NCBI GenBank assembly: GCA_036630325.1
Contig: CP142731.1
Coordinates: forward strand, 992,001-1,056,000
Length of the DNA: 64,000 nt
Direction of reading: 5' to 3'
Source: Vairimorpha necatrix
Taxonomy: Eukaryota
Part shown: positions 1 to 44,513 of the stretch, piece after piece
Position numbering within the stretch: position 1 is the first letter of the stretch
Layout of the letters: each line of letters opens with the position of its first letter
Position numbers and translations under genes: made by a program
The notes under the pieces: generated by a model
Told to the model about the DNA's origin: nothing
Database searches by the model: none
Seen by the model: only the letters and a program-made list of their open reading frames with translations

Positions 1-147
1 TCATTATGGTTCTTAAATGTACTTACCATGAGTTACGATTAGCTTCATAATATACGTTTTTATAAGAATTTTCTTTTATTTACATTAATTGATTTACAAA
101 AACAATGAAAATTTTATTTTTTATTGGTGCTATTTTTTTGCCCATAA

Positions 148-8571: not shown

Positions 8572-11445
8572 ATGGGTAATACTTCTTCTAAGATTCCTAC
8601 TCTCCAAATATTAAAAGTCACAGAGAACAGTGTATCTCATAGATTTAATATTTTGCCTTACATGCACACCATCTTACAAATTAATAACAAGCCCGTCAGT
8701 GAAGCCACTGACGGACTAGAAATAGTAAGACAGTGGGAAGAAGGAGATTTAGATCTTCTTATTAGAGATCTAAGAATTAATACTAATATTAATATTATAG
8801 TACCCAAGAAAGAGTCTGACTCCAGACTTGGTATGAGTGTAAATTACAGTGAAGATATAGTCAATTTATTTACAATAAAAATCTTGAAGATTATTGACGG
8901 GTCTCCTGCTCAACAGTGTGGCCTGTTGATTTATGACTATATCTTGGGTGTAGAAGGGGAGCCTATAGAGAATGAGAACATGTTACTGAAATATATAGAA
9001 AAGAAGAAGAAGACAGGAATGACACTCTTAGTATTCAATGAGAAGATGAATTTTATAAGGAGAGTAAACTTTATAGTGAAAAGTGGACTGAGTCTCTTTG
9101 GGTGTAAAATAGGCATGGGAATATTGTACGGGATACCAAATGATAAGAGAGAAATAAAGACAGAATATGATGAAGAAAAGATAAGAAAGAAGATAGAGGA
9201 ATTTAAAGAGCAACATGGGGAAGATATAAGTGACGACGAGAGATCTAAAGAACCAGATACAAATACTAAAGAAGATATAAGTAAGAAAGAAGATATAAGT
9301 CAAATATTTGATCAAGGAGATATTAATGAAGAATTTACAATACGAGATATAAACAGGAGTGAGGAGAAAGGCCAAGATATCAAGGAAAACAAGAGCGAAA
9401 AATCAAACAAAGAAATATCTAGCGAAGTAAGTCAAAAACATGTAGATACTAATATTAAGAAAGAATTAGAGACAGAAGACAAAGAAGAAACTAAAAGCGA
9501 AACAAGTGAAAAACCAAAGAGCCAACTCAAAGAACATGTAGATAGTGAAATTAAGGAAGAGATAAAGACAGAAAATAAAGAAGAAACTAAGAGCGAATTA
9601 AAAGATGAACCAAAGACAGAAAATAAAGAAGAAACTAAGAGCGAAATAAGCGAAAAACCAAAGAGAGAACTGAAAGAACATGTAGATAGTGAAAACAAGG
9701 AAGAGATAAAGACAGAAGCCAAAGAAGAAACTAAGAGCGAAATTAAGGAGCCATCGAAGACTAAAATTAGCGAGGAACCAAAGACAGAAGCAAAAGAAAA
9801 ATCAAAGAGCGAAATAAGTCAAAAACATGTAGATAGTGAAATTAAGAACGAACCAAGAGCAGAAATCAAGAAAGAAACGCCCAAGACAGAAACAAGCGAA
9901 AAATCAAACAAAGAAATATCTAGCGAAGTAAGTCAAAAACATGTAGATAGTAAAATTAAAGAAGAATTAGAGACAGAAGCCAAAGAAGAAATAAATAGCG
10001 AAATTAAGGAAGAGTCAAAGAACGAACTGAAAGAAAATGTAGATAGTAAAATTAAAGACGAACCAAGGGCAGAAGCCAAAGAAGAAATAAATAGCGCATT
10101 TAAGGGAGAGTCAAAGACAGAAAATAAAGAAGGAATTAAGAGCGAAACTGAAGATGAACAAAAGACAAGCGAAATAAGTCAAGAAAATGTAGATAGTGAA
10201 AACAAGGAAGAACTAAAGACAGAAATCAAGAAAGAATTAAAGACAGAAAATAAAGAAGAATTTAAGAGCGAAATTAAGGAAGAGTCAAAGAGCGAACTGA
10301 AAGAACATGTAGATAATGAAAACAAGGAAGAACCAAAGGCAGAAGCCAAAGAAAAAAAGAGCGAAATTAAGGAAGAGTCAAAGACAGAAAATAAAGAAGA
10401 AACTAAGAGCGAAACTGAAGATGAACAAAAGACAAGCGAAATAAGTCAAGAAAATGTAGATATTGAAAACAAGGAAGAACCAAAGGCAGAAATCAAGGAA
10501 GAAACGTCTAACGCAGAAATAAGCGAAAAATCAAAGAGCGAACTGAAAGAAACGCCCTTGGCAGAAAAAGATAAAACTGAAATAAAAGAAGAGTCAAAGA
10601 GTGAGATAAAAGATGTTTCTACGGAAAAGGACAAAGACGAAAAAACTGAGAAAAGGGAAATAAGTAAAAAACATGTAGATAGTAAAATTAAGGAAGAACC
10701 AAAGAACGAAAATAAAGAAGGAATAAATAGCGAAGTTGAAGATGTTTCTGCGGAAATTCTCAAAAAAGAAAAGACTGAGATAAAGGAAAAGCCAAAGAGC
10801 GAAATTGAAGATTCTCTAGAGACCAAAATTGAAGGTGAACCAATTACAGAAGCTAAAGAAGAAACAAAAAGCAAATTCAAAGAACAAACAAAGACAGAAA
10901 TTAAGGAAGAATCAAAGGGCGAATTCAAAGAAGCGTCCTTGGAAATGCGCAATGAAGAATCCCTAGAGACAAAGGAAAGATCTAGCGGACTGAAAGAACA
11001 TGTAGATAATGAAATCACGATAGTAACAAAGGCAGAAATAGACAAGGATAAAAAAGATGAGAAAAACTTAAAGTCTGAAGGTCTAGAGAGCAAGATTAAA
11101 AACAACATAAGTGAAAAGTCAAAGACAGAAATTAGTAACAAATCTGCTACAGTTCAAGCGTATGAAAAATCAGAAAGCCAAACAAATGAAAAGTCAAAGA
11201 CAGAACTAAAAAGCAAGGAAATGCCAAATAAGTCAATAAAAGAAAAACAAAAGACAGAACCTGAGAATGATGAACAATCAAAGAGCAAAATAAGTGAAGA
11301 ACTAATTGACCACCCCAATGAAGAAAATATTGGAAAATCAAAGTCAGAAATAGGCGAAGAATTGTCCAGTGAAAAAACAAAGGGCGAGATTAAAGAAACC
11401 TCGGAGCATTTTCACTTTATCCCCCCCCTTACCAATATAAATTGA
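8572..11445 (+). CDS. GRH1: GRASP55/65 (Grh1) family Golgi protein with long E/K/S-rich repetitive tail; truncated by a TIR insertion
   Basis: MG N-terminus (possible myristoylation); two PDZ-like repeats (ILKVTENS...ILQINN; ILKIIDGSPAQQCGL..YDYILGV); FGCKIGMGILYGIP resembles GRASP LGCxIGYGYLHRIP; CCC motif before ATG; the last ~13 aa come from the insertion. Confidence 0.8.
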   Translation: MGNTSSKIPTLQILKVTENSVSHRFNILPYMHTILQINNKPVSEATDGLEIVRQWEEGDLDLLIRDLRINTNINIIVPKKESDSRLGMSVNYSEDIVNLFTIKILKIIDGSPAQQCGLLIYDYILGVEGEPIENENMLLKYIEKKKKTGMTLLVFNEKMNFIRRVNFIVKSGLSLFGCKIGMGILYGIPNDKREIKTEYDEEKIRKKIEEFKEQHGEDISDDERSKEPDTNTKEDISKKEDISQIFDQGDINEEFTIRDINRSEEKGQDIKENKSEKSNKEISSEVSQKHVDTNIKKELETEDKEETKSETSEKPKSQLKEHVDSEIKEEIKTENKEETKSELKDEPKTENKEETKSEISEKPKRELKEHVDSENKEEIKTEAKEETKSEIKEPSKTKISEEPKTEAKEKSKSEISQKHVDSEIKNEPRAEIKKETPKTETSEKSNKEISSEVSQKHVDSKIKEELETEAKEEINSEIKEESKNELKENVDSKIKDEPRAEAKEEINSAFKGESKTENKEGIKSETEDEQKTSEISQENVDSENKEELKTEIKKELKTENKEEFKSEIKEESKSELKEHVDNENKEEPKAEAKEKKSEIKEESKTENKEETKSETEDEQKTSEISQENVDIENKEEPKAEIKEETSNAEISEKSKSELKETPLAEKDKTEIKEESKSEIKDVSTEKDKDEKTEKREISKKHVDSKIKEEPKNENKEGINSEVEDVSAEILKKEKTEIKEKPKSEIEDSLETKIEGEPITEAKEETKSKFKEQTKTEIKEESKGEFKEASLEMRNEESLETKERSSGLKEHVDNEITIVTKAEIDKDKKDEKNLKSEGLESKIKNNISEKSKTEISNKSATVQAYEKSESQTNEKSKTELKSKEMPNKSIKEKQKTEPENDEQSKSKISEELIDHPNEENIGKSKSEIGEELSSEKTKGEIKETSEHFHFIPPLTNIN

Positions 11446-12267
11446 GAATTTTTAAAAAATATCCCCTTTTTTCGAAATTCGAAGCGGAAAAAATGTGAAG
11501 GAGCAAAAGTCAAAAAAATAAAGTTGTAATAAAATAGCATATTTACCAAAAATAAAACAATTGTTTTTTCGTTTTTTTTTTTTCAATTTTTTAAAAGTTT
11601 CCTTCTTCCAATTATTGATCAAGATTTATCTTTATTGTACATTGCAATGTATAACAACGAAATCTCTATATAAATAATATTTATAAGGTTCATTTGCTGT
11701 TATAAATGAATATTTTTCAAGAATTAAAGAATTTCCCAAACATGTAATGTTTTACTTTTGGAGCTAAAATATAACATATCTTATTAAATTGACATTCTAT
11801 GCGATTCAATAATTCTTAAAAGAGCATAAATATAACATTATTTTTACTTTGTTTGTCTAGAAAAACCAATAAAAACCTAAAAAACAAGACTAATAAATAT
11901 ACTACCAAACTAAGAATAACCTAACCTAGAATCTGTTTTAAACAACATAAACTGTGTATAAACATGTTTATCTTTGGCAAAAATTAAATGTAATGACAAA
12001 AGAAAGCAATAGGTTAAAACATATTTTTACAAATTTAGACTTCTATTTAACTCATAGTTTATTAGAAAACATTATTAAATTGGTTTAAATAATATATTTT
12101 TTATAAATTATGTTCAAATTAGATATTTATAAGACCATTTTTTTACTTATGTAAATTTTTCTCTGTTCCTTTCCGCTCTGGACGCTTCGACTTTTGAAAA
12201 ACAGGGCTAAAAATAAAAAATTCTGTATTTATATTGGTAAGGGGGGGGGATAAAGTGAAAATTAGCC
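11403..12267. mobile_element. Non-autonomous TIR DNA element (MITE, Mutator- or Merlin-like) inserted in the GRASP gene
   Basis: Imperfect ~85-bp TIRs (GGAGCATTTTCACTTTATCCCCCCCCTTACCAATATAAAT vs revcomp GGCTAATTTTCACTTTATCCCCCCCCCTTACCAATATAAAT); TSD gaaacctc at 11395-11402 and 12268-12275 (extendable to 9 bp gaaacctcg); AT-rich non-coding interior. Confidence 0.92.
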
Positions 12268-12318
12268 GAAACCTCGACAACTTTAAAGAGCGAAATTTCA
12301 GAAGCTGAAAAGAGCGAA

Positions 12319-15300
12319 ATGACAAAAACAAAAATTTTAGAAGCTGAAAAGAGCGAAATGACAAAAACAAAAATTTTAGAAGCTGAAAAGAGCGAAATTT
12401 TAAAACCTGAAAAGAGCGAAATGCCAAAAACTGAAAAGAGCGAAATTTTAGAAGCTGAAAAGAGCAAAATGTCAAAAACTGAAAAGGGCGAAAATCCTGA
12501 GATAATTAAAAATGAGGAATCCAGTGAAAAAACTAACTATGAGATTAATGAAAAGTCAAATCCCGAAGATAAAGACAAATTAAAAGAAGAAATGAAAAAT
12601 GTTAAATCTAGTGGAATGAATATGAGCACTTTAATGAGTGATATTATTGATTTTTACAGTGATAGTGAAATGAAATCAAAGAGCAAAATAAAAGAAGAGT
12701 CAAAGTCAAATGAAGATTTAAATGAAAAACCTGGGACAGAAATTCATAAAAGCGAATTAACAACCTTACTAAGCGAAAAATCAGAAAGCAAAATTACCGA
12801 AGAGCGAAAACCAAAATTGAACAAAGATGTAGAATCAAAATTGAATGAAAAATCAAAGGGCGACGTAAGTCAAAAACATGAAGAAAACGAAAACAAAGAA
12901 ATTTCGACAACTTCAGAGAGCGAAAAATCTAAGCCTGAAAAATCTAAGTATGAATTAAAAGAAAGGTCAAAAGAAGATATAAATGAAGAAAAAATTGAAA
13001 CAACAGAAGAGAAATCAAAAAGTATGACAACTCAATTTCACGACGACAACGAAAACAAAGGCCAGTCGACAACTCTCACGAGCGAAAAATCTAAGCCTGA
13101 AATTTCAGACGAACAAAAGTCGGAAATTATCGAAAAGTCAGAGACCGAAACAAGTCTAAAATCTAAAGAAAACGATCTTGCATCAGAAATAAAAGAACAA
13201 TCAAAAGAAGAAATGAGCACAAAAGAAAATTATGAGAAACAAATAACAGACATGTTAAGTGAAATATCGAAAGAAGAACCTGAAATTCATGAAAAGATTG
13301 AGACTAGTAGAATAAGCCAAAAATCTGAAGCTTCCAAAATACAAGGAAATTCGTCAACTTTAAAGAGCCTAAAAATAATCCCCGAAGAGTCAAAGCAAGA
13401 AATCGACTCAAAAATAAATGAAAATTTAAGTAGCGAAATAAGCCAAAAATCTGAAACTAGTAAAATTGAAGAAAAATCAAAAAGCGAAGAACTCAAGACA
13501 AAAGGCGATAAGCCAGAGGAAGAAATAAAAGACGAACAACATTCTGAAAAGAACACATTAAAAAGCGAAATAAGCCAAAAATCTGACGGCCTTGAAATAA
13601 AAGAAAAATCATCATTTTTGACGAGCAGAATGTCAAAGACGAAAGAATCTGAATCAGAGAGCAAAGAGCCAGTGACAGAATCAAAGGAAGAAATAAAAGA
13701 AGAACAACATTCTGAAAAAAGCTTAAAATCTGAAGGTAGCAAAATCAAAGAAAATTCACCAAATTTAAAGAGCGAAGAATTTAAAACGAAATCAGAAGAG
13801 TTAAAAAGTGAAAGCACAGAAGAACAACATTCTGAAATTCATAGAAAAACAGAGATTGGTTCAATAAGTCAAAAATCCAAAGATCTCGAAGATAAACAAG
13901 AATCTGAAAGGTCCAAGGGCGAAGAACAAAGGAAAAAATCAAGTGAAAGCACAGAAGAACAACATTCTGAAAAGACAGAGATTAGTAAAAATCCAAAGAG
14001 TGAAATCCAAGATCATCTCCAATCAGAACTAATTGAAAGCGAAAAACAAGAGAGCAAACCAGAATTAAATGGTACTGAAAAGTCAAAGAGTGAAAATAAA
14101 GAAGAAAACATTTCTCAAATTTCAAATGAGAGTAAAATGTCAGAAGAATTTAAGACCGAAATAAAAAACGAATCTAAGCGCGAAATTAAAGTAGATGTAT
14201 TTTCTAAGAGTGAAATAAGTCACAAGGAAATAAAAGACGAACTAATTTCAAATTCGTCCAGTGAAGAATCAAGCACATATCAAAAGAGTGAAACATCCGA
14301 GCAAGAAGCAGAAATAAACTTAGAATCAAAATCAAGTAAAACTTTCAAAAGCGAGGCAAGTCTAAAAAACATGGAAAACCATAAAAGAGAAGCAAGTCTA
14401 AAAAACATGGAAAACCATAAAAGAGAAGCGAGTCTAAAAAACATGGAAACCCATAAAAGAGAAGCGAGTCTAAAAAACATGGACAGTGAAACCTCCAAAA
14501 GAGAAGCAAGTCTAAAAAACATGGAAACCCATAAAAGAGAAGCGAGTCTAAAAAACATGGACAGTGAAACCTCCAAAAGAGAAGCAAGTCTAAAAAACAT
14601 GGAAACCCATAAAACCGAAGCGAGTCTAAAAAACATGGAAACCCATAAAAGCGAAGCAAGTCTAAATCTCCCTGACAATAAATCCCAGGCAGATTTTTTA
14701 AATAGTTCGTCAAATATTTCTGAACAGAGATCAGAAATATTTGACGAATTTAAGGGCTCAATGAATGACCAGTCAAATTCGGAGTCTAAAGACGAGTCTA
14801 AGAAGTTTAATGTTAGTAAAATCAAAGAAGTTTTATATTCAGAAATTCTCAGTGAAAATAACTCAGGAGATACTAAATCTTCATTAGTCTCAGGAGATAA
14901 TAAATCAACATTAGTCTCAGGAGATAATAAATCTGAAGAAAGTTTCTATAAAAATCTAATCCAGAAAGATCTCGATCTTCTCCCTGAAAACATAAACAAA
15001 GAAGAAGAAAAGACACAAGAAGATAAGAGTAAAGAAGATTACAAGAATCTACATGTAACAGAAAAGAGTCAAGAAGAAAAGAGTAAAGAAGACACCCTAA
15101 AATATTCTGATCTCATATTTGAAGAGTCCTCTGAGGGAGGATACAATGACATCGCCCGCGTATTAAATGAGCCTTCTCCTCAAGGAATCAGCCTTGAGCA
15201 CTCCACTAAATTCCAAGAAGACAGTGAATTGAAAAGTCCCATAGAAGAAAATATGATGAAAAGTCCCATAGAAGAAAATATAATAAAAAGTCATGTAGAA

Positions 15301-15504
15301 GAAAATATGATGAAAAGTCATGTAGAAGAAAATATGATGAAAAGTCATGTAGAAGAAGACACTGAGGCAAGTGGATGGAAGACGGCATTTGACAATATGA
15401 CTGAACTTAATGAATATGAAGAAGATAGTAAAAAGAAGACTTTTATAAGCATCTTAAAAGAAGATGACACAGATTTCGATCTGGAGGACATGAGGAAAAT
15501 ATAA
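12319..15504 (+). CDS. C-terminal portion of the GRASP gene: E/K/S-rich low-complexity protein with tandem repeats
   Basis: 1061-aa ORF with the same composition as the 8572 tail; frame is open back to 12276 and joins 8572..11402 in frame when the insertion and one TSD are removed. Confidence 0.8.
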   Translation: MTKTKILEAEKSEMTKTKILEAEKSEILKPEKSEMPKTEKSEILEAEKSKMSKTEKGENPEIIKNEESSEKTNYEINEKSNPEDKDKLKEEMKNVKSSGMNMSTLMSDIIDFYSDSEMKSKSKIKEESKSNEDLNEKPGTEIHKSELTTLLSEKSESKITEERKPKLNKDVESKLNEKSKGDVSQKHEENENKEISTTSESEKSKPEKSKYELKERSKEDINEEKIETTEEKSKSMTTQFHDDNENKGQSTTLTSEKSKPEISDEQKSEIIEKSETETSLKSKENDLASEIKEQSKEEMSTKENYEKQITDMLSEISKEEPEIHEKIETSRISQKSEASKIQGNSSTLKSLKIIPEESKQEIDSKINENLSSEISQKSETSKIEEKSKSEELKTKGDKPEEEIKDEQHSEKNTLKSEISQKSDGLEIKEKSSFLTSRMSKTKESESESKEPVTESKEEIKEEQHSEKSLKSEGSKIKENSPNLKSEEFKTKSEELKSESTEEQHSEIHRKTEIGSISQKSKDLEDKQESERSKGEEQRKKSSESTEEQHSEKTEISKNPKSEIQDHLQSELIESEKQESKPELNGTEKSKSENKEENISQISNESKMSEEFKTEIKNESKREIKVDVFSKSEISHKEIKDELISNSSSEESSTYQKSETSEQEAEINLESKSSKTFKSEASLKNMENHKREASLKNMENHKREASLKNMETHKREASLKNMDSETSKREASLKNMETHKREASLKNMDSETSKREASLKNMETHKTEASLKNMETHKSEASLNLPDNKSQADFLNSSSNISEQRSEIFDEFKGSMNDQSNSESKDESKKFNVSKIKEVLYSEILSENNSGDTKSSLVSGDNKSTLVSGDNKSEESFYKNLIQKDLDLLPENINKEEEKTQEDKSKEDYKNLHVTEKSQEEKSKEDTLKYSDLIFEESSEGGYNDIARVLNEPSPQGISLEHSTKFQEDSELKSPIEENMMKSPIEENIIKSHVEENMMKSHVEENMMKSHVEEDTEASGWKTAFDNMTELNEYEEDSKKKTFISILKEDDTDFDLEDMRKI
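14352..14666 (+). repeat. Coding minisatellite of 36/42-bp units (REASLKNMETHK / REASLKNMDSETSK), about 8 copies
   Basis: Direct repeats gaagc(a/g)agtctaaaaaacatgga. Confidence 0.9.
15232..15358 (+). repeat. Coding minisatellite of 27-bp units (KS(P/H)(I/V)EENMM), about 5 copies
   Basis: aaaagtc..tagaagaaaatatgatg repeats. Confidence 0.9.
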
Positions 15505-16367: not shown

Positions 16368-16770
16368 TGGGGATAAGAAGGAGAAAAAAAATATAGAAAG
16401 ATATATCAAAAAAAACAAAAAAAAAAAAGATATAGTACTCAAAAGGGAGTAAGAATTTGTTTGTTTAATATCAGGCATGTAAACAAAATATAATAACCTC
16501 TAAAAAGAAAAATGTATAAAAAGAAAAATATATGTATTAGATATATTTTAGATATATTTGAAAATATATATTTATAATATTATTAAAAATATAGTAAACT
16601 TTATTTCTAATATAACCAGATAAAAAACTATATTAAATTGTTACCGGCTGTGTTGCACACGCCAATAATCAGACTAAAACTTAAAGATGAAACAGTTGAT
16701 AATGATCTGAAACCATCTAGGTTTCAGATCCGAAACTAAAACTATTTAAGAAATCTTAAATAGACTAAAT

Positions 16771-18177
16771 ATGCCAAATAAATATAGTTCTTCTTCTAAT
16801 AAAAAGCCTTCTTCAATAACCAGCTCTCCTTCTGGTAACACTGGCGACAACTATTCGAAATCCAACGAATTGGGCCACCTACTAGAAAAATTAGGGATAT
16901 CTACTAACACAATGGTGAAATTCAACGGTACCCAAGGCGAGAACGCATGGGTCTGGATTAATCAATTTAAATACCTCGAGGGAGAATGGAATGATATAAA
17001 ACTGCTCAACTACATTAAGAGATACTTAGGGGAATCAGCTCTCCTATGGTATGAGGCTGTAATTGAAGACGAGGTGGAAGGATATATGGAATTCAAACAG
17101 AAATTTCTAACAAAATATGGGAAAGAAGAATTCCGGGAGGGAATTAATCCCATTAAAATGCTTTATAAGAGACTATACTCTGGACCTGTAAATATGAAAA
17201 TTGAAAACTTTATATACGAACTAATGAAGCTTAACAAGAAAGCAGGAGTTAGCGTGTCTGAAATTACGGAGGAGTTGGCTAGATATTTCCCACCGTCACT
17301 TAAAGAAAAGGTGGAAGAGGCAACGTCATGGGACGTTGTACTAAAGATTTATGAGAGAAATCATAAATTTATTGAGAGTTCAAGGCAGAGACCTGAACAG
17401 AATAGGCCAAGGGAAGCAAGGACTTCAAGGCCATATACTACAAGGACAAGAGAGAGTCCAAGAAAGTTAGTATGTTATAAGTGTGGGGGCGAACACTTAT
17501 TTAAAGACTGCGAGAAACACGAAGGGAAAAAGGTGTTTTTAATCGAGGCAGATCCAGTGTCAAAAGACACGAACGATACTACGATCTCAGGGTCCATCGA
17601 CCGCGACGTAGTAAGAACGCGTTTGGACTCGGGGGAGTCCAACCCATTTATCGAAAGCAATTTTGTTGGCAGAAAGAAACTAAGAAAGGTAAAAGAAGTA
17701 CATTTTAATCAAACTATTCCACAGAGTATAGATATAACAATGTCTATACAAGAAGATGGGCGGATTAAAAAGTGGGCAAGTGCAGAAACAGCTCAGACGT
17801 CGCTTCTGTATGGAAGTTTGAGGTTTTCCGAGACGAGTACTTCGATTAACAAGCAATTCGATGGCCAGCAAAATAACTTTCTCGAGAATGATAGAAAAAA
17901 TCTAAACATTGAACGAGCAAATAAAAGCGTGGAGAGTGACGAATATACGAGCACCAAGGACGCACATAGTTCGATCGAAAAGGAAAGAGACGATGGTGTG
18001 CGCCTATACAATGAACTCACAAAAGTAAAGGAAACACGGACTAAAGAAGTAGGTCAATCCCCCGTGATTAAAGAATGTTCTACATACTTAAGTGTAGCGA
18101 AATTGAACCATCAACTCGACCCGGGAAAACGATACTATCTAACTCTTCTGGAAAAGAAATTTACGAGCACGAAGTGA
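16771..18177 (+). CDS. Retrotransposon Gag (capsid-like region plus CCHC knuckle) followed by a DSG protease-like segment
   Basis: KFNG...WINQF...YLGESALLWY...FKQKFLTKY is Ty3/Gypsy capsid-like; CYKCGGEHLFKDC; RLDSGESNPFI resembles retropepsin LDSGAxxNFI. Confidence 0.8.
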   Translation: MPNKYSSSSNKKPSSITSSPSGNTGDNYSKSNELGHLLEKLGISTNTMVKFNGTQGENAWVWINQFKYLEGEWNDIKLLNYIKRYLGESALLWYEAVIEDEVEGYMEFKQKFLTKYGKEEFREGINPIKMLYKRLYSGPVNMKIENFIYELMKLNKKAGVSVSEITEELARYFPPSLKEKVEEATSWDVVLKIYERNHKFIESSRQRPEQNRPREARTSRPYTTRTRESPRKLVCYKCGGEHLFKDCEKHEGKKVFLIEADPVSKDTNDTTISGSIDRDVVRTRLDSGESNPFIESNFVGRKKLRKVKEVHFNQTIPQSIDITMSIQEDGRIKKWASAETAQTSLLYGSLRFSETSTSINKQFDGQQNNFLENDRKNLNIERANKSVESDEYTSTKDAHSSIEKERDDGVRLYNELTKVKETRTKEVGQSPVIKECSTYLSVAKLNHQLDPGKRYYLTLLEKKFTSTK

Positions 18178-18824
18178 AGAAACAAACATTTTTATGTGTG
18201 AATAAAAGCGTGGTGAGCGAGGAAGTAGCGATCGTGCAGATCGTGCTTATCGAAATAATATCTAAAATAGATGAAGGTATGAGGCCAATACTGACCTGGA
18301 AGTTACTATTTATGGTTCTGCACTGTGAGTTGAATAACATTAGAATAAAACTCAAAAGAATAATATTTAATATATTTAAGAAGCCGCGTAATAAGTTCAT
18401 AATGTCTTACTATACATTATATAGAAATGAAAGATTGGATAATCAGAGCAGGAACATGCTCAGTAAAGATTCTATGAAAAACGAACACATAAAACCAAGT
18501 TGTCCTCTTGCTAATATGCATAAAATGGAAATCTTAGTCGCAACTGAATATAGGAACATGAAGAGACCTTTCAATAAAAAGAACATAGGATCATTCATTA
18601 ATATAAAAAGAACATCTAGAAGAACCTTTGAAACCCTAAGTCTTGTGAATGAAAAGTTCTACGATAAATTGGTGAACGTTGCATCTTCCCAGGAAGTGAA
18701 GCCTTGTTCTAAGGAGGGGAGAGTGTTACCGGCTGTGTTGCACACGCCAATAATCAGACTAAAACTTAAAGATGAAACAGTTGATAATGATCTGAAACCA
18801 TCTAGGTTTCAGATCCGAAACTAA
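18075..18824 (+). other. Second overlapping ORF inside the LTR element (unknown; possibly degenerate pol remnant) that reads into the 3' LTR
   Basis: 249-aa ORF with no recognisable RT or integrase motifs. Confidence 0.3.
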
Positions 18825-19259
18825 AACTATTTAAGAAATCTTAAATAGACTAAATATGCCAAATAAATATAGTTCTTCTTCTAATAAAAAGCCTTCTTCA
18901 ATAACCAGCTCTCCTTCTGGTAACATAAATAATGTATAAATAAGAAAAATATATATTAGATATATTTGAAAATAGAAAACTTTATTTCCAATATAACCTT
19001 ATTATATATAATATAATATTATATAAGATTCATATTTACATATTGGAGAGGTAAATTTAAAGTAAACTTTATTTCTAATATAACCTAATTTAATATATTA
19101 AAAACATAGTCTAGAACTATATTAAAAACATAGTCTAAAATATATTAAAAACATAGCCTAGAACTATATTAAATTCTAAATTAGATTTATATGGGAGATT
19201 TACGATTTTGTTTACTACAAACAATACCAAACAAACAAAATCACAATAAACTCCCCTAA

Positions 19260-26747: not shown

Positions 26748-29700
26748 ATGAAGGGTAAAAATGAAGAAGAAGGAGCTGAACTAAAAATAGCTAAAACAAC
26801 ACTAGCAGCACCGAACAACCAAAAAACACACGATATAAACTCAGTATCATTATGTACAGAACCAGGAAGACCCAAGAGGTCTAACAAGTTGGATTCTCTA
26901 ATGGCCGTTCTCAGAAAAGTTGAGGGCGCCAAGTATGATTGGCCTAGGAAGTCTTTCCAAGCCATTTTAAGTAGATGGAATCAGATGCCAAAGGGAGGAT
27001 GGAACAAAGTACTAGAGTTCTATTGTGCAAAATTTAAGGAAAAAATATCTATTGTTAGAATAAAGAAAATGGCGCAAAAGCACTTGAAAATGAAGCAGGG
27101 ACGCTTACAAGAGTAAGAGAGTTTAAAGAGGAGAATACAACTAAAAGAAGAAAGACTTTGGACGAGATTGCAAGAGTATGCTCCCTAAAAGATGTAGAGC
27201 GACAAAATGAAATAGATTAAAGATTTAAAGAGATGTTGACTAAAATTAAAGATACAGACGTTTGCTCTGTACAAGGAACAAGAAAGATATCTTCTAAAAA
27301 AGCTTATTATGAAATTATAGAATCTTTAAATTTAGTGTTTGGAAATTTTGTTTACTAAAGAATAAAGTCAATAATATGAATGATATTGTCAAAATTATCC
27401 AAACTGCACAATGGGTGTATCAAGAGATAACATGTAAAGAAATTAAGAAAAGTGTTTAAAAAGAAAGTATTGAAGATAAAATAAACGCAATGGAACAAAA
27501 AAAAGCGCTTTTTGATACAATTTAAGTTAGAGAAAGATAAGATAACTGAGGAAGAGAAAAAAGCCCTAAGAAAATGCATGAGGGAAAGAAACTTAATACT
27601 TTCAAAAGCAAATGATGTTATTAAAATGGAATTATATCTTAAGGAGAGGATCTTGGTATACAAGAAGAAGATAGAAGTTCACGAGAAGAGAAAAGCATAT
27701 AGAAATGGAAATACAAAATTTGAACTTTACCGTGGAAGATACTACCGAGACCTAAATGTAGAGGAGAAGAATGATCATAAAGTTGGGAAAAAAGAGATTG
27801 AAGATTTCTGGTCGAAAATGTGGGAAAATGCAGAACAAGAAACTTCAAAATGAAGAAGAATACCTATGGAAATACAAAATAGAACAGCCCAACATCAATG
27901 CTTTCCCGACAGAAGAAGAGTTTAAAAATATAATAGGATGGCTGCCCAACTGGAAAGCAGCAGGTCTAGATAGAGTCTATAATTTCTTTATGAAGAAAAT
28001 GTCTAGCCTACATGGATCTCTTTACAAAGTAATTAAGAAAATATGCCTGGAGAGTTATACGGAAGAAGAATGGTTTTACAGAGGAATTACTTATCTGATA
28101 CCTAAAGGGCAACCAGTGGAAGGAAAAGACTTTAGACCCATTACATGTATGTCTAACTTGTACAAATTACAACAAAATATATTACATACGTACTCCAGGA
28201 ACATGTGGAATCAAACTCTCTTTTAGCAGATAACCAGATGAGAACAAAGAGGAAAGTGCAGGGAGCTAAAGAACAGGCAATGACAAATAACATGCTGAAT
28301 AGAGAATATAATTATAAAATCAAAACGGCCTGGATAGATGTTAAGAAGGCGTACGACTCAGTAAGACATGACTATTTAATAAAATGCATTAAAGCTCTGG
28401 GACTACTAGAGTGGATATGTAAGACAATAGAAATACTAGCCAGCAAGTGGAATCTAGAAATATTTGAAGGAAATGAGAAGATCATGGGAAAGAAGGTCAG
28501 AAGAGGAATATTACAAGGAGATAGTTTGTCCCCGCTATTGTTTGTGCTGTGTATAGACCCGCTAAGTCGGAAATTGAATAGTATATACCCCAAGTTAAGC
28601 ATCCCGTTGGGAGAACAAGCATTTGTAACTAACCATTTGTTGTTTATTGACGATTTAAAATTACTTGCAGAAAATGAGGAAGTAATGAAAGAGATGATAG
28701 ATGAGACAAGAAAATTCTTTAATACTGAAGGTCTAGAAATCAACGCGGAAAAATCGGCTACAAATAGTATATAGTGTAAAGATGAAGGCAAGTTGCTAGA
28801 GGGGCATGGGGGTATAAATATCTAGGCATTACAGAAAGCCACGAAGGTAAGATAATGAAGGAAATAAAGGAAAAAATATGGAAGGCCATCTTATTAAGAA
28901 TCTAAAAGTTATGTAAGACTAAGCTGAATGCGAAACATTTGTTTAAAGCAATCAATGAACATGGAATAAGCCTAAAAAATTACTATATAGGAAAAATAGA
29001 TGCCGAACCAGAAGAATACAAGATCATAGACGACAACATCAGAAAATTATTGATTAAATATCACGTCCATCAACAACCTGCAACTAAAGAAAGATTATAT
29101 CTCTCCAGAGCCGAACTTGGAAGAGAGCATTAATGCGTAGAACATAAAAGTGAAAGAATGCTTTTACAACTAGCCAAAGAATTTGAAAGCACGAAAGAAT
29201 CTGTTCTAAGACGCAAGGCGATTTTCCACTCCGAGAAAACTGGCTACACATATCTATCCACCATAGAAGAATATATAAAAGAGAAATATAAACTTAAGGA
29301 AAACGTAACAGCTAAAATATTAATAGAGGCTCAAACTGAATCTCTTTATAGCGATATAAAAATAAAAACAAACCATTCAAAGCTATTTAGACCAAGAGAT
29401 GATCCACTTATTGATATAAAACAGGCTGCCACGTGGCTCACAAAAGGAAATATAAGCCCGAGAGAGGAAGGCAATTTATGTGCATTACAGGACTGAAATA
29501 TTTTCTTAGAGAAACAGATAAAATTCCCACACTGCCATGAATATGCAAAGACAGTAGATCATATGGCCACCCAATGTGATCGTATGCTTTCACATGATTA
29601 CATGAGACGGCACAATGAGGCACTGCGATGCATCCACCTGCAGTTGTGTAAGACGTATGGTCTATCCCATGCCAAAAGAAATAGAAATCATTCAGTCCAG

Positions 29701-33482: not shown

Positions 33483-34852
33483 AGAATTAGATTTAATGCT
33501 TAACACTATTAAAATTCGTTATAAGACAGAGAAATCTTAATTTTATTCAAACAAGCGTATGGTTATTGTAGGAGCGCTGATATTAATAATATGTCGGAAT
33601 AGGCAATAGAGTTTTTAAATATAAAATATTTAGCGATGAGAAAGTGTAATATAGAATTGTTCAACGCCAATAAGGAGACCTGTGGAAATAGCATTCGATG
33701 ATGCTCCTCCCTGCAATATTATTTCGATTATTATTATTATTTATTTTTAATGTTTGTTTTCAGAGACTCCTCTTTTTGTCCTTTCATTTCTATCTTAAGG
33801 TAGGGGTAAAATTGAAGGAAAATATTTATAGTAAAATATTTTCTAAAAAATTCATTTGGAAAGAAATTAAATAAAAACAAAATAACGTGTTAAATAATAC
33901 CACAAAAATATATTTTGTAATCCTGAAGAAGAAATTTATTTTTGTTATTGCTGTATAAATATAACTGACTTAAAGATTTAATTGTGGAACCTATAGAAGG
34001 TCTAAAATAGCTTGGCCCTTACTTCACGTTAATATAAGAGTTGTGCCGTCTTATTTTAATCACAAAATGTTCATTTTTTATATCTCTTTACAGAAATCAA
34101 ACAATGTTGAAGCAATTGTTTTCCATTGTTTTTCTACTCGATAACGGTTAAATTTAAACCTATGATAAACTCATTGATAGATAAGGTATTGTGCGGAAAA
34201 TGTTAAGAGGGTTCACTTAAGTAAGACATGTATTTATTTGCATTGAGAGTATTTAAAAAATAATATTTTGGATTATTATTTTTCTTGTATAGCTTTTTCC
34301 ATTTTTGATTATAAAAAAATACATTTTTAGCATAATTTTCATTAATTTTACAAATATGCGAACCAAATTTTAATATTTCTTATAAGCTGTTTGTATTATA
34401 GTTTTATCGATTGTATCGAAAATGGTTAGAAATTTATAATCAAAAAAAGTTAGAAAAATTTAACTTCTAAGAGCTAAGAATTTTTTTTTAGAATACTCCT
34501 TCTAATAGGCGATGTATCACAAAAATCAATTATTTTATAGCTTTTATCCTTCTAACGAAAATTTTTAATGGCAGTATATTTTTTTAAACCTTAAAAACAA
34601 ATTCAAAAGAATCTTATTGGTCTTTTATAATTGTCAGAATACTGTTTTTGGTTATTGGAAATTTCCCTTACTTCGATTGTTTTAGGATATGCCTTAAGAT
34701 ATGGAAAATAATTTTTAAATATGGTTGTATGGCCTTTTGCACTGTACAATCAAAATTTCTTTTTTACTTGTCTTTAATATAATTTTAATTTTATCTCTGT
34801 TATTGTCTCTGAATCCCAAGTTTAAAATTGTGTATTTATTTTTATTAATAAT

Positions 34853-37800
34853 TGTGATATATTTGTATAATTTCTATCCCCCATTATGATAAATAAAGAC
34901 ATGGGGGCGATACCGAATCGTCAGTTTACAAGTGTGGACTGTGGTCTAGAGGCCAAAAAGTTATTAAAAGAAGTTAGAAGAATAATGTATAGGTTGGAGA
35001 TGGAGGAAATAGAAATCAGTTTGTGGAAGCAGAGAATATTTATGGAAGGAAGTGAAGAAATAAAAAATTTCATGGTAGAAAGAATTAGTAAAGAGGACGA
35101 ATATTATAAAATAATTGAGAAATTAGAGGAGGAAATATGTAGAGAAGAAAGAACTAAAAAAGAAGAAGGAAATAGGAGAGAACTTATGGAGGTCATAGCT
35201 GAGAATGTTAGAGAAACTGTGAGAAAAGAAATTCAAGAGAAAGATTTAGTTTTAAGGAATACAGTACAAGAAATAAGAAATAATAGGAATTGTTTTAATT
35301 GTGGTAAATTTGGCCATATGGCTAGGAACTGCTATTTAGGGAGGAACAATAATCAGGAAAATAATAAAAAGTTTAATAAGTACTTAAATTTAGACGAAAA
35401 CCAAAGTTGTAGTAGCAGTAATGATAATAAAGAATATAAACCAAGTGGAAAGACAAAACGAGTTAAGTTAAAGGAATGTAATAATAGTGATAGAAGACAT
35501 AAAGAAAGAATATATGCGAGCAATAAAGAGACGAAAAGAAGATTACTGAAGAGGGCATTTACGTTGGAAGATCTCAAAGCGGAATATGAAGAAGTTTTTA
35601 AACAAGGAGATGAGGTTATAAGTTATTGTACATTAGAGAAGTGTAAGATAGATACTCCAGAGGGTAAGAAGATAGTCAGAAAGGGACAGACGATCCCACA
35701 GGCTTTGATCAAACAGACTGAGGAATATATTAATGATTTAGAAAATAGAAAAATTATAAGAAGATCGTCTTCGGAATGGCGAAACCCAATAAGAGCGATA
35801 CTTAAACCAAGTGGTGAAGTAAGAGTAGTTAGTAATTTTATAGGGTTGAATGATTTAGTCGAGAAAGACCCGTATGAGCTAACGAATATGAGAGAAATAA
35901 TAAGAGCTACGCAAGGGTCGATAATATTTACTGTTGTTGATTGCAAAGAAGCATTTTACCATTTTGAAATCGAAGAAAAAGATAAACATAAGACGGCGTT
36001 TGAATTTAATAAAAAAGTTTACGAATGGAATAGTATGGTGATGGGATACAAAAATTCCCCACAGATACTACAGAGAACGATGAATATGATTTTTGAAGAT
36101 TTGCGGGGAAATGGTGTTGAGGTATACATGGACGATATAGTAATACATGCCAACAATAAACGTAAACACGATGAATTAGTAATAGAAGTTATAGAAAGAA
36201 TTAAGAGAAATAAAATGAAATTAAATATTGGGAAAATACAGTTTAGACAAGCGGAAGTAAAATTATTAGGTGTGACGCTGAATGGAATAGACATGACGGC
36301 CGACGAAATAAAGAAAAATGAAGCCTTGGAGTATCCGGATCCAAAAACTTTGACGGAATTGAGGAGGTTTCTAGGATTGACTGGATGGTTCAGACCATTT
36401 ATAAAAGATTATGCCGGGCTGACGTTGAAAATGACAGATAGTTTGAAGAAAAATGGCAATTCGTGGAAATTTACGGAAGAGATGAAAGAGGAATTTACTA
36501 AAATGAAAAATGTGTTAAGAAATATGGGAAGACTAAGATTACCGGACTATAATAAGGAGTTCATACTAAGAACAGACGCTAGCAATTTGAGATTGGGTGC
36601 GGTGTTACTTCAGAAGAATGAGAATGGGGAATGGGTTGCTATACAATGGGCATCTAAAAAGCTAACACCTACCGAAATAAGATATGGAATATCAGAAAAG
36701 GAAATGCTTGCGATATATTGGGGCATTGATAAATTTAAATACGAGTTAAGAGGTAGGAAATTCAAGATAGAAACGGATCACAAAGCACTGGTGGAGATAA
36801 GAAATAAACCGTTTTTTAATAATAACAGAATAAATCGCTTAATCGAGAAGATACAGGAATATGATTTTATCGTGGAATATAAAAAACCTGATGAGATGGT
36901 GGTAGCAGATGCGTTGAGTCGAATAAATATGGAAGAGGATATTAAAGAAATGAAAAATAAAGAGCGAACAATCAAGCAAACAGAAGGTAAATGGAAAGCA
37001 CATGTTTTTTCCGAGAATGGAAAGCAATATTGGCAATTTGACTCAGGACGTAAAGTTGAAATACCACCTGAGAATATAAGGAGACAATTAATCCAAGAAT
37101 ATCATGAAAAAGTAGGCCACAGATGCATGACAAGTGTTTATTATGCAATGAGAGAAGAATACTATTGGCCAGGAGTAAAGAAAGAAATAAACGAGGTTAT
37201 AAAACAGTGTCAGAAATGTCAGATATATAACAGGAAAAATATGGGTGGTTGTGAATTTGTAGATACGTCGAGATACTTAGAGAAGGTTGCATTAGATTTG
37301 ATAGACTTTAGAAATGAGAAGAAATATGTTTTAGTTGCTATTGATTATTTTACACGTAGAGTATGGGGAGTAGTTATAAATAACAAGTCAAGTAATAATG
37401 TTGTTGGATTTTTGAAAAGATTATGTGAGCAAGGGAAGAAACCAGAAGAAATTATTACAGATAACGGGAAAGAGTTTATTAACGTGGAATTTAGAAAATT
37501 TTGTAGAGATCTCGATATAATACACCGACAAGTAAGTATAGAAGCGCATAGAAGTAACGGAAGAGTAGAGCGTGTTATAGGAACTTTGAGAGAAAGTATT
37601 TTAAAGTCGGATGCGAAAACTTTTGAAGGCAAAGTGTATAAAAGTATCGATATATATAATCAGAGCTATCATACGGGAATAAAATGTACACCATTAGAAG
37701 CGACTGAAGATAAAACTGGAGACGTAATGCTTGAAAATAGCCCTATGGGGAAATATTGTAATAGGTTTGGAAAGGGAAAGATCGAAAAATATAGTAAATG

Positions 37801-38071
37801 TCAATTGGTAAGAATAGCTAAACGAGAAAATTTGGCAGGTGTTAATAAGTATGAAAAAGGAAGATTTTTGGATACAGGGAAAATTGTTGAAAAGTGTGGA
37901 AAAGATTCTTATATTGTAAAACTTAGTAATGGTAGGCTTGTGAAGAAGAGACATTATGATCTGAAGGGTATGCTTGGGGTAGATGTGAAAATTAGATGAG
38001 ACTAACCGTCTTGAGGGGGGGATGTGATATATTTGTATAATTTCTATCCCCCATTATGATAAATAAAGACA
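34853..38071 (+). mobile_element. Complete Ty3/Gypsy LTR retrotransposon with 49-bp LTRs
   Basis: Identical LTRs 34853-34901 and 38023-38071 (TGTGATAT...AAAGACA); 5-bp TSD ATAAT; PBS TGGGGGCGATACC; G-rich PPT 38013-38022; single intact ORF. Confidence 0.96.
34886..37999 (+). CDS. Polyprotein: mini-Gag with CCHC knuckle, RT, RNase H, integrase (no protease motif)
   Basis: CFNCGKFGHMARNC; VDCKEAF, MVMGYKNSP, YMDD; RTDAS, EKEMLA, ETDH, ADALS; H..VGH...CQKC; LDLID, TDNGKEF, NGRVER. Confidence 0.95.
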   Translation: MINKDMGAIPNRQFTSVDCGLEAKKLLKEVRRIMYRLEMEEIEISLWKQRIFMEGSEEIKNFMVERISKEDEYYKIIEKLEEEICREERTKKEEGNRRELMEVIAENVRETVRKEIQEKDLVLRNTVQEIRNNRNCFNCGKFGHMARNCYLGRNNNQENNKKFNKYLNLDENQSCSSSNDNKEYKPSGKTKRVKLKECNNSDRRHKERIYASNKETKRRLLKRAFTLEDLKAEYEEVFKQGDEVISYCTLEKCKIDTPEGKKIVRKGQTIPQALIKQTEEYINDLENRKIIRRSSSEWRNPIRAILKPSGEVRVVSNFIGLNDLVEKDPYELTNMREIIRATQGSIIFTVVDCKEAFYHFEIEEKDKHKTAFEFNKKVYEWNSMVMGYKNSPQILQRTMNMIFEDLRGNGVEVYMDDIVIHANNKRKHDELVIEVIERIKRNKMKLNIGKIQFRQAEVKLLGVTLNGIDMTADEIKKNEALEYPDPKTLTELRRFLGLTGWFRPFIKDYAGLTLKMTDSLKKNGNSWKFTEEMKEEFTKMKNVLRNMGRLRLPDYNKEFILRTDASNLRLGAVLLQKNENGEWVAIQWASKKLTPTEIRYGISEKEMLAIYWGIDKFKYELRGRKFKIETDHKALVEIRNKPFFNNNRINRLIEKIQEYDFIVEYKKPDEMVVADALSRINMEEDIKEMKNKERTIKQTEGKWKAHVFSENGKQYWQFDSGRKVEIPPENIRRQLIQEYHEKVGHRCMTSVYYAMREEYYWPGVKKEINEVIKQCQKCQIYNRKNMGGCEFVDTSRYLEKVALDLIDFRNEKKYVLVAIDYFTRRVWGVVINNKSSNNVVGFLKRLCEQGKKPEEIITDNGKEFINVEFRKFCRDLDIIHRQVSIEAHRSNGRVERVIGTLRESILKSDAKTFEGKVYKSIDIYNQSYHTGIKCTPLEATEDKTGDVMLENSPMGKYCNRFGKGKIEKYSKCQLVRIAKRENLAGVNKYEKGRFLDTGKIVEKCGKDSYIVKLSNGRLVKKRHYDLKGMLGVDVKIR

Positions 38072-39570
38072 ATAATGATTATTAATCTAAAATGTTTAAG
38101 AATACTTTAGATAAAAAATGATTATATTTTTTTCGTCAAAAATATACTGCAAATATAAATATTTGTTCAAAACTGAACTTTAAGTTAAGGAATATAATTT
38201 TTAAATTTTTTGCTATATTTGTAGGTCCATACAAATCTTCATTATTGATATATTTTTTCGTAGTTTTCTGGTATATGTACATATTCTAGATATACTTCAA
38301 GTTAAGTTATTTTTTTAAAGTTTTACACAAATTATGTATGAAATTCTTTTATCTATATGATATGGAAGTAGAAAAATTGAATTTTTTACAATAAAAATTT
38401 CTTATGACATGGATCAAATTTATAAATTTTTATACACTGATAAAGTTAAGAATTGATTCTTATTAAATATAAACTTTGTCCATATTTAAATACACAAAAG
38501 GTAATAAACTTAAACAAACATTAATATATGCACTTTTGAAAGACGAAGTATGCAATAAATCGCAAAGATTAAACCAATAGGCATTATTTAATACATGGCT
38601 CCATAAAACTACGGGGGATGTTTTTTTCTCAAGATTACAAAAATAATAAATTTCGTTTATTTTGAAAAAAAATGTAACGAGTCTATGTTTAAAGCAAACT
38701 AATATCCCAAATACATTGTTTAAGATATTATATTGCTAATTTCAAATAAATTTTAACACAAAAGGCACTTTAGAGCATTAGATCACTTGCAAAAACCAAA
38801 GAATACAACAGAGAATGCGAAATGGCTTTTTTTCTTGTGCATCAAATATATTTATTTGAAAACATGTCTACAAATATAAAATCTATAATTAAAGTATTTA
38901 GAATGTTTGAAAAGTTTAATATACGCTTGCAACCCGATTTCTTTGAAACACATTATAATAGTCAAAATATCCTACTTCAATAACACTTGTAAAAGATGTA
39001 TTCTCACAAGCAATAATCTTTAGATGACTAAAATAAAAAGCGTAGGAGTATAAATATGATTGTTTAATAAAATAAAATAAGCTCTTAAATTCGGGTTATA
39101 TTAATTTTACTAGTAAGCGAATTTTGCTGATTTAGATGTTTTACTCTGTTGTTTTTTCAAACTATCCTTTATGTTGAAATTATATTTGAAGTTTCGATTT
39201 GTAAAGTGATTAACAAATAGCAAAGATCTTAAATAGTAATATAGATGTAGTTATTACCAAGTTTCGTCCCTTATATTCAATTTATTAATAATTTCAATAA
39301 CAAGATAGAAGTGTTAATTGCGCAAACCTCTTCCTATTAGATAATTTGTTTTGGTTATAATAATTATGTTTTTTTATAAATTTATATTATACATTGAGCT
39401 AAAATAAACTGTCGAGTTTCTCTATTTATCGATAATTATACTTACATAAATAAATGTAAATTAATTTATCAAAAATATATAATATTTTCTTTAAAGTAAA
39501 TTGAATGTAAATGTTTACAAAAAAACTGTTTTAATATATATTTATGATAAAAAATACATACCCCTTTGTT

Positions 39571-43713: not shown

Positions 43714-44513
43714 AGGTGCCCTTGGCCGAGTGGTCGAAGGGATGTTCTCATTGACCAATGGGCTGGGTTCGAGTCCCAGGGGCACCAAATTGTTTCTACT
43801 TTCTATGATGCAGTTGGAACAACTCAGATGATGAAAATGTCCACGGTAATCATTAAGTTGATTCAATGAAACTTGTGTGTGTCCAGCCACAAGGGGATTA
43901 GCATCTAGTGTAGAAACGCACCTCAAGGCCTGAAAAACAGTATCACCCTTTGGTGACTTAATGATACATAAAAGTATCTAATGGGTACGACCTAGTTGGA
44001 GCCCATGGCTGGTGCACTCTAGAGTGGGATCCTAGAGCTAACTAAGAGGCTAGACGAAGTAGGGCAACAGAAGGTCTCGTGGACCCTATCCTACATGATT
44101 CTGTAACACGGTGGCCGAAACTAGTGGGAGACTGGTGGTCAACGCAGTCCAATAAAAATGCCGGGCTGGGGATGTGGTCGTGTAAGGAGCCGTGTGTGCG
44201 ATACAGATGATTGTAGGGACCTTTGAGTCAGTACGATGATGTCTCTCCTCGGGTTATAGATAACCATGCTCGTTAAGTATATCCGCTGTGAGGTCACTCT
44301 GGACGCGATTTGAGGTATAAATGGAAAGTGTTCTCCTGGAGCCAAAGTCCCAATGGATACGGCGGAGCTTGCTGCACCGGCAAGTTATACGGAGGGAGTT
44401 TTAGTGAGTAAGAATCTCACAGTACCAGTTGGAAAAGGATCACACTCAAATCCCTCTGGTCCCTATGTAAGGTTTCTCCCTACCTCTTACTTGCAAAGAA
44501 AAAAAAAAAAAAA
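43714..44513 (+). mobile_element. tRNA-headed SINE-like retroposon, copy 2 (better preserved)
   Basis: Head 43715-43787 with A box TGGCCGAGTGG, B box GGTTCGAGTCC, 7-bp acceptor stem and 5-bp T stem; poly(A) tail; 13-bp TSD atgtatttgctct (43701-43713 and 44514-44526). Confidence 0.9.

Follow-up and report, generated by a model that had tools for sequence, protein, structure and literature searches.

A 49-bp long terminal repeat with a probable host-type promoter and start codon in a protease-lacking, Ty3/gypsy-derived retrotransposon of Vairimorpha necatrix

Introduction

The microsporidia-specific groups of Ty3/gypsy elements, including Nbr of Nosema bombycis, are described as encoding a single polyprotein (PMC4202319), and nearly all Nbr elements, according to a secondary account, encode a protease (PMC2474625). 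Among the 50 complete elements tabulated for Anncaliia algerae, the open reading frame (ORF) starts inside the long terminal repeat (LTR) in 43, the median LTR length being 191 bp, and one element reported in 2014, 'Aalg retro L', combines an LTR of 50 bp with an ORF at 32-3049 and a total length of 3127 bp (PMC4202319, Table S1). In passages of the main text of the same paper, neither LTR size nor the internal ATG is discussed, and the main text contains the word protease 0 times. Here we describe an element with a 49-bp LTR that occupies, together with its flanking target duplications, positions 34848-38076 of a 64,000-nt stretch of contig CP142731.1 of Vairimorpha necatrix (assembly GCA_036630325.1; this whole stretch is called the window below, and coordinates are window positions). 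The element is an LTR retrotransposon that belongs to a young microsporidian clade of about 100 copies, 3.2 kb in length, derived from Ty3/gypsy and devoid of a protease. The explanation that in our view accommodates most of the observations, and that we hold to be reasonably probable, is that its LTR is composed of U3 (unique 3') and R (repeat) with little or no U5 (unique 5'), carries a host-type promoter and gives rise to a short strong-stop DNA, with the RNA being cleaved in the flanking DNA.

The host genome is of the microsporidian type, 15 Mb in 12 contigs, and the GC content of the window is 28.5%. Host statistics were obtained from 490 kb of the same genome, with 149 mechanically called ORFs, whereas structure and conservation were read in 72 copies of the tiny-LTR clade, each anchored on its primer-binding site (PBS), and in a set of 47 close relatives of the polyprotein. 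For comparison, 20 loci of unrelated, mostly protease-bearing LTR families were combined with a copy at 16.6 kb of the window, for a total of 13 lineages; this survey is a sample from which about 20 further protease-bearing loci were left out. All that is said below on transcripts, namely, on start site, cleavage and strand transfer, is inferred from DNA alone.

Architecture and copies of the element

The element is delimited by a 49-bp TG...CA repeat on the forward strand, the 5' LTR at 34853-34901 and the 3' LTR at 38023-38071, with 0 mismatches between the two; an ungapped comparison that allowed up to 16 mismatches found no further LTR copies within the window beyond this pair. Comparison of the flanks identifies a duplicated target site (TSD) of 5 bp, ATAAT, on both sides (34848-34852 and 38072-38076), and the same boundaries, with TSDs, recur in other copies. 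Read in the forward direction, the LTR consists of an AT-rich tract (34853-34877), CCCCC (34878-34882), ATT, ATG (34886-34888), AATAAA (34892-34897; 38062-38067 in the 3' LTR) and GACA, such that the two bases GA separate the hexamer from the terminal CA. A single ORF of 1037 aa (34886-37999, forward strand) starts at this ATG and reads on through the LTR end and the PBS (34902-34915), which is itself protein-coding and complementary in 14/14 bases to the host tRNA-Pro(AGG) with its CCA end (the tRNA gene is in L073), the next best tRNA matching 8 bases. A polypurine tract (PPT; 38013-38022) adjoins the 3' LTR. Some of these features had been noticed in a sequence-only reading of the window, which described the order of motifs in the LTR, placed the polyprotein ATG inside it, followed the ORF through the PBS and pointed to the same arrangement in the 48-bp LTR at 61859-61906; the sequence and the identical partner LTR bear out each of these points. 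What is missing from that account is a second in-frame ATG at 34901-34903, in which the final A of the LTR is joined to the TG of the PBS (CA/TGG, with the slash at the LTR end).

The LTR at 61859-61906 (forward strand; locus L012) is the 5' LTR of a copy from a different subfamily, B, with its ATG at 61891 and the PBS from 61907; the partner LTR lies outside the window and is identical, and the TSD is TAAAA. The last TSD base of this copy and the TG of its LTR form an in-frame upstream ATG at 61858, at which ORF callers begin 11 codons too early.

The layout of the LTR is not a chance arrangement because the pattern CCC-(0-7)-ATG-(0-10)-AATAAA is rare both in the genome, where it is found in 13 of the 19,992 non-overlapping 49-mers of the 490 kb, element copies included, and among 100,000 shuffles of the LTR (0.03%), the pattern in both cases being one that was picked after it had been seen.

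A search for the PBS across the genome yields 103 matches, compared to 0 with a reversed control. Both LTRs are present in 59 of the 72 copies, and all of them are 48 or 49 bp long; among these 59, a perfect 5-bp TSD flanks 49 and the LTRs are identical in 38. The copies fall into five subfamilies, A (to which the element at 34848-38076 belongs) to E, with 56-67% protein identity and 19 intact ORFs altogether. A solo LTR with a TSD was found at one (L227) of three sites checked. The insertion preference is strong and palindromic, TA/TnnnA/TA (slashes delimiting the TSD), with A before the TSD in 46/49 and T after it in 47/49. The LTRs of subfamily E (L081-L086, L056) end in TA rather than CA in 8/8 copies, and their TSDs are perfect and ORFs intact. 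In the L007 copy, an 80-bp near-identical direct repeat lies outside the LTRs (at about 1273-1352, with its partner 3.8 kb downstream), perhaps because of insertion into another repeat.

Promoter and start codon

In Nosema ceranae, CCC is reported to lie no more than 15 nt from the ATG, preceded by a T tract, with a TATA peak near -27 (PMC2685015). For Encephalitozoon cuniculi, the 5' untranslated regions (UTRs) are given as 1-7 nt long, CCC is located ahead of the start site, and an AAATTT-like tract is described (PMC2803860). This geometry is recognizable in the LTR, where the left integrase end overlaps a putative AT-rich core-promoter tract, with TAATTT and a T-tract ahead of the C-run, and CCCCC is located 3 nt before the ATG. 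In V. necatrix itself, CCC is found at most 15 nt upstream of the ATG in 90/149 host ORFs, compared to 3/149 in an upstream control window, and the commonest gaps between the two are 3-5 nt. Within the clade, CCC precedes the ATG in 69/72 copies, across all five subfamilies, and the ATG lies exactly 16 nt from the LTR end in 69/72; among the subfamilies, CCC and TTATG are invariant columns, whereas the codons between the two ATGs vary. In subfamilies B-D, TATAWAW is present at -28 to -30 in 43 of the 44 copies, in agreement with the N. ceranae peak. Furthermore, 18 of the 47 close relatives begin with M-x(3-7)-M-[A/G], and 17 of these 18 have H, Y, D or N immediately ahead of the second Met, which fits an LTR ending in ...ACA/TG. 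Given this match between the N-termini of the relatives and the LTR junction, along with the conservation of CCC and ATG among the subfamilies, the layout is clade-wide. Thus, position, host statistics and conservation in five subfamilies all support the proposal, already present in the sequence-only reading, that the LTR contains a host-type promoter and start codon, and we consider this likely.

Two observations weigh against this conclusion: a perfect TATAWAW is found in 0/20 copies of subfamily A, which is one base off, and in 0/8 copies of subfamily E, and the 5' UTRs of Edhazardia aedis are described as long, so that short leaders are not universal in the phylum (PMC2474625). In the host genes, a TATA-like motif near -27 is optional (10/90, against 5, 2 and 4 in control windows).

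Could translation start, instead, at the junction ATG at 34901, with the ATTATG of the LTR retained in the role of an initiator element and not of a start codon? In alignment A2, the Met encoded at the junction, Met6, stands out as the one N-terminal column that is nearly invariant (at least 90% of the sequences), and several database proteins are called from this residue. A leader of 1-3 nt, moreover, favours leaky scanning in other eukaryotes. However, in each of the five subfamilies the first ATG lies in the same frame with no intervening stop, at the distance from CCC that is seen in host genes; the relatives retain an in-frame upstream Met, at varying distance; and microsporidia translate from leaders of 1-7 nt. 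Initiation at the junction ATG accordingly appears doubtful.

A different scenario would have transcription driven mainly by flanking host promoters, or starting further left in the LTR, with the C-run having some other role, for example that of pairing to a G-run in the PBS or PPT. Indeed, CCCCCAT of the LTR and ATGGGGG of the junction form a 7-bp inverted repeat in subfamilies A and B, the C-run of the 3' LTR can pair with the PPT in a fold of -18 kcal/mol, and overlapping transcription is a frequent feature of microsporidia. However, subfamilies C, D and E do not preserve the perfect complement, and CCC persists in the metagenomic element L123, in the 70-bp-LTR family of L222 and in retro L, the PBSs of which contain no G-run, whereas the position of the C-run relative to the ATG matches that in host promoters; we find this scenario highly improbable. 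Pairing of the C-run with the PBS or PPT was rejected as such because it is not conserved.

Poly(A) signal

AATAAA is found at the stop codon in 82/149 host genes, compared to 24/149 in the control, and within the LTR in all 13 unrelated lineages, in which the LTRs span 70-341 bp. Within the initial 24 nt of the ORF, the hexamer is present in 7/12 LTR lineages and in 8/147 host ORFs (Fisher p 9e-6), with 1.13 such lineages expected from composition shuffles; for this test, one intact-start locus was taken per lineage (11/20 loci, with duplicates and two broken starts dropped), and subfamily A was added. In the tiny-LTR clade, AATAAA follows the ATG in 60/72 copies. These counts make it likely that the hexamer functions as a poly(A) signal.

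Several facts sit uneasily with this interpretation. The 24-nt window was chosen after the data had been seen, so the p-values are optimistic. In subfamily E, where three ORFs are intact and TSDs are present, AATAAA never follows the ATG (0/8). The part of the LTR left after the last AATAAA is 4 nt in subfamilies A-D, compared to 13-106 nt in the 13 other lineages. The hexamer doubles as two codons, and the corresponding Asn-Lys is present in only 3/18 of the relatives' leaders. Finally, the spacing of about 20 nt between hexamer and cleavage site is a general eukaryotic value rather than a microsporidian one, as far as the account in PMC2803860 goes, and the base profile downstream of AATAAA in 75 host genes showed no feature that would locate the cleavage site. 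As for subfamily E, ATTAAA is found just before CCC in 8/8 copies, and both L123 and retro L have AATAAA in that place; it seems that the hexamer is required and its position is not fixed.

Should the hexamer be non-functional, merely a pair of Asn-Lys codons in an A-rich context, transcripts would run to the next host signal, and the terminal redundancy would still be preserved. The lack of AATAAA after the ATG in subfamily E is in line with this view, and so are the high frequency of the hexamer by itself (2,456 of the 19,992 49-mers, or 12%) and the read-through described as common in E. cuniculi (PMC2803860). Nevertheless, the positional enrichment in unrelated LTR families survives the composition shuffle, and lineages without a downstream hexamer have an upstream one, so that a purely coding role strikes us as quite unlikely.

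If AATAAA is a signal, the next question is where the RNA would be cleaved. The sequence-only reading implies that the RNA is cleaved within the LTR, at the terminal CA or immediately ahead of it, which would yield a true miniature U3-R-U5 structure with an R of 13-20 nt. The CA dinucleotide is the usual cleavage context, and a CA does follow AATAAA here. In subfamily E, L123 and retro L, where the hexamer precedes CCC, cleavage would fall within the LTR, and an R of 16 nt exists in mouse mammary tumor virus (MMTV; PMC6088434). Conversely, the 4 nt after the hexamer in A-D are far below the approximately 20 nt given in PMC2803860, and the shortest spacing in the 13 other lineages is 13 nt; there is no room in an A-D LTR for a cleavage site together with a downstream element. 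Cleavage inside the LTR is, in our estimation, unlikely. The two claims of the sequence-only reading that bear on the 3' end therefore stand in part. The poly(A) signal in the LTR gains from the enrichment in other LTR families but is weakened by its absence after the ATG in subfamily E and by the 4 nt that follow it. Given those 4 nt, a U3-R-U5 that has shrunk and yet is complete is unlikely, and an LTR made of U3 and R, in which U5 is small or absent, is a better fit.

A proposed replication cycle

Under the U3 plus R interpretation, the left 30 bp or so of the LTR, with its AT/TATA tract, T-tract and CCC, would function as a core promoter of host type for RNA polymerase II, overlapping the left integrase end. 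Transcription would start 1-7 nt before the ATG, as in host genes, producing an almost leaderless RNA, and the last 16 nt of the LTR together with the PBS would be translated as the N-terminus of the single polyprotein. tRNA-Pro(AGG) would prime at the PBS, and the reverse transcriptase (RT) would copy about 17-23 nt before reaching the cap; given that a host-like start is assumed, this distance would amount to the entire minus-strand strong-stop DNA. In the 3' LTR, AATAAA would place the cleavage site 10-25 nt or so downstream, within AT-rich flanking DNA immediately beyond the LTR, in a zone that would start approximately at the right TSD copy (38072-38076). Such cleavage beyond the LTR, which for A-D would follow from the usual spacing of about 20 nt and the 4 nt that remain, we regard as fairly probable. 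The RNA would then hold the whole 3' LTR, with which the strong-stop DNA could pair over its full length, and the flank would be dropped at strand transfer. Retroviral read-through RNA, likewise, can be copied with the flank discarded. In effect, the LTR would be U3 plus R with little or no U5, and the hexamer in the 5' LTR would be separated from the cap by about 10 nt, a proximity that probably keeps it from being used there. A further run, consisting of contigs, had multi-copy depth and different insertion flanks, with neither joints nor molecule ends, and so speaks neither for nor against such a transcript.

Given a host-like start site, the earlier estimate of a terminal redundancy of about 20 nt or less stands. 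The sequence-only reading had, however, also held that an RNA ending beyond the 3' LTR would leave no redundancy, and this is wrong on structural logic: such an RNA contains the whole LTR, and the redundancy is maximal. A difficulty for the proposed cycle is that an AT-rich RNA/DNA hybrid of 17-20 nt is weak, with a melting temperature of about 42-44 C (42-53 C for 17-23 nt). A strong-stop DNA as short as 17-23 nt was not found in the literature searched.

A more radical version would portray the element as a self-sufficient minimal retroelement that lacks U5, has a strong-stop DNA of less than 20 nt, forms its 3' end in host DNA and encodes a single Gag-RT-integrase polyprotein that stays uncleaved, with at most half a capsid, such that reverse transcription and integration proceed without maturation by a protease. 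Through the target preference of the integrase, TA/TnnnA/TA, a TA would come to lie some 10 nt downstream of the hexamer, and the length of the LTR would be set by the footprint from TATA to the start site plus the minimum homology required for strand transfer. We offer this only as a tentative and rather improbable extension.

Polyprotein, missing protease and relationships

The 1037-aa product consists, in this order, of a small helical Gag-like domain, a CCHC knuckle (present in 16/16 sequences), a disordered linker, RT, RNase H and integrase, with Pfam matches to the CCHC knuckle, RVT_1 (305-465), RT_RNaseH (554-659), Integrase_H2C2 (727-783) and rve (804-881), which is the gypsy order. 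No Pfam match to an aspartic protease was found between Gag and RT in this ORF, and a search for the protease motif was negative in five subfamily representatives and the 47 close relatives; in the AlphaFold model, residues 152-222 have pLDDT (predicted local distance difference test) values below 50 and are disordered, with no beta domain. The Gag region is modelled as three short helices and one long helix, and residues 24-89 can be superimposed on the C-lobe of Arc (Z 5.5, rmsd 2.8 over 64 residues), a weak similarity that ties with unrelated helical bundles; Foldseek gave no match for the Gag region at E 0.001.

The element has TG...CA repeats and a TSD (with TA ends in subfamily E), a tRNA PBS, a PPT and the RT-RNase H-integrase order of Ty3/gypsy. 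Because a protease is missing, it is filed as a Ty3/gypsy-derived variant and not as a canonical member. Since other families in the same genome carry proteases (150 hits scored of 260 candidates), processing in trans by these enzymes is possible.

Among named sequences, those nearest to the polyprotein carry the labels Nosema granulosis, Vairimorpha necatrix and Enteropsectra breve. In a tree of RT-RNase H (132/138 sequences), 50 core sequences group together without any member that has the protease motif, with a support of 0.17 that rises to 0.99 when one extra long-branch sequence is included. The motif test recovers only 37/82 of the sequences outside the core group. With such support and such an insensitive test, neither the monophyly of the clade nor a single loss of the protease is established. 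A scan of metagenomes yielded 80 loci, and of the five examined, only L123 has both LTRs: this complete element (repeats at 41-107 and 3924-3990 of its contig) has 66-bp LTRs that include an ATG, lacks a CCHC knuckle, encodes a protease and is related more distantly to the tiny-LTR clade. In the phage collection searched, there was no match.

Other repeats and retroelements

The copy at 16.6 kb of the window (16639-18925) is an unrelated LTR element with identical 202-bp LTRs, the TSD TAAAT, a PBS of the tRNA-Ser type and a Gag-CCHC ORF that starts at an ATG inside the LTR (16771), with no RT or integrase detected by Pfam; it is a 2.3-kb derivative of the 4.0-kb family at L218. A protease-bearing family (L222/L223) has 70-bp LTRs with TATA, CCCCC, ATG and AATAAA 13 nt from the end, along with a tRNA-Ser PBS, and is an independent route to a short LTR. 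In ten other loci (L207, L208, L209, L212-L217 and L221), no tRNA matches the PBS position, and a short palindrome (e.g. TTGAATTCAA or TTTGAGCTCAAA) is found just after the 5' LTR; these palindromes in protease-bearing families suggest tRNA-independent priming or RNA dimerisation.

Elsewhere in the window, tRNA-Met-like sequences are located at 43715-43787 and 20952, with similar copies that have Trp and Ile anticodons in L037, L055 and L076, and the segment 21183-21395 is repeated at 43946-44158; together, these may point to a tRNA-derived repeat. Two adjacent ORFs at 27771-28774, the second with an RVT_1 match (E 6e-23), represent another broken retroelement, and two long ORFs at 8572-15504 consist of lysine/glutamate-rich repeats of 24 nt and 36 nt.

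Implications

Should the proposed geometry hold, the element would mark a natural lower limit of LTR function, in that 49 bp would accommodate a promoter and both integrase ends as well as five codons and a signal for the 3' end, and the first strand transfer would proceed on about 20 nt instead of the roughly 100 nt usually copied at this step. The minimal length of strong-stop DNA and the need for U5 would become testable. The absence of a protease from an entire recently mobile clade raises the question whether processing is borrowed from protease-bearing families or is not needed. Solo LTRs, such as that at L227, scatter cassettes with a host-type promoter and a start codon. In practical terms, elements of this kind fall below the default minimum LTR length of 100 bp in LTRharvest (PMC2253517, Table 1).

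Comparison with known systems

In the openly accessible literature searched, no discussion was found of an ATG inside the LTR, tiny LTRs or protease loss in microsporidian elements. The most similar described element is retro L, whose 5' end, as read by eye, runs TGTTATAT, AT tract, CCC, ATG and ACA/TGG, a succession shared with the tiny-LTR clade; it differs in that AATAAA precedes CCC instead of following the ATG, a distance of 19 nt separates the ATG from the LTR end, and the PBS is a different one. Judging by its sizes and by the N-terminus as read by eye, retro L very probably belongs to the same clade. Compared to Nbr and the A. algerae groups in general, the tiny-LTR clade is distinguished by its 48-49-bp LTRs and the lack of a protease. 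The start of the ORF inside the LTR is not peculiar to the tiny LTR, being found also in 11/13 of the other lineages of this genome, the remaining two having broken starts.

The GAG gene of Ty1 likewise starts inside the LTR. The Ty1 PBS lies within the GAG ORF, and the PBS begins at RNA nt 94 in Ty1 and nt 121 in Ty3 (PMC4974528), so that the strong-stop DNAs of these elements are about five times longer than the 17-23 nt proposed here. Only this layout, with its coding PBS, is common to the two, Ty1 having the copia domain order, a protease and a frameshift. Membership in Ty1/copia was rejected given that the integrase does not precede the RT.

Retroviruses with a short R keep a long U5 and a non-coding leader. 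The 16-nt R of MMTV is reported to suffice for the first strand transfer (PMC6088434), whereas in the present case the whole strong-stop DNA would be that short and, in addition, coding. Canonical Metaviridae LTRs are described as having AATAAA followed by a GT-rich stretch (PMC3601003), which is missing in the 49-bp LTR. Very short repeats, 5-bp TSDs and solo LTRs are shared with terminal-repeat retrotransposons in miniature (TRIM) and small LTR retrotransposons (SMART), such as the SMART element FRetro129, which is non-coding and non-autonomous and has 85-bp repeats (PMC3281118); the repeats described here are about 36 bp shorter still, and assignment to TRIM/SMART was rejected in view of the 1037-aa ORF with RT, RNase H and integrase that they enclose. 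Each ingredient of the element thus has a precedent, and a relative with a 50-bp LTR was already tabulated in 2014.

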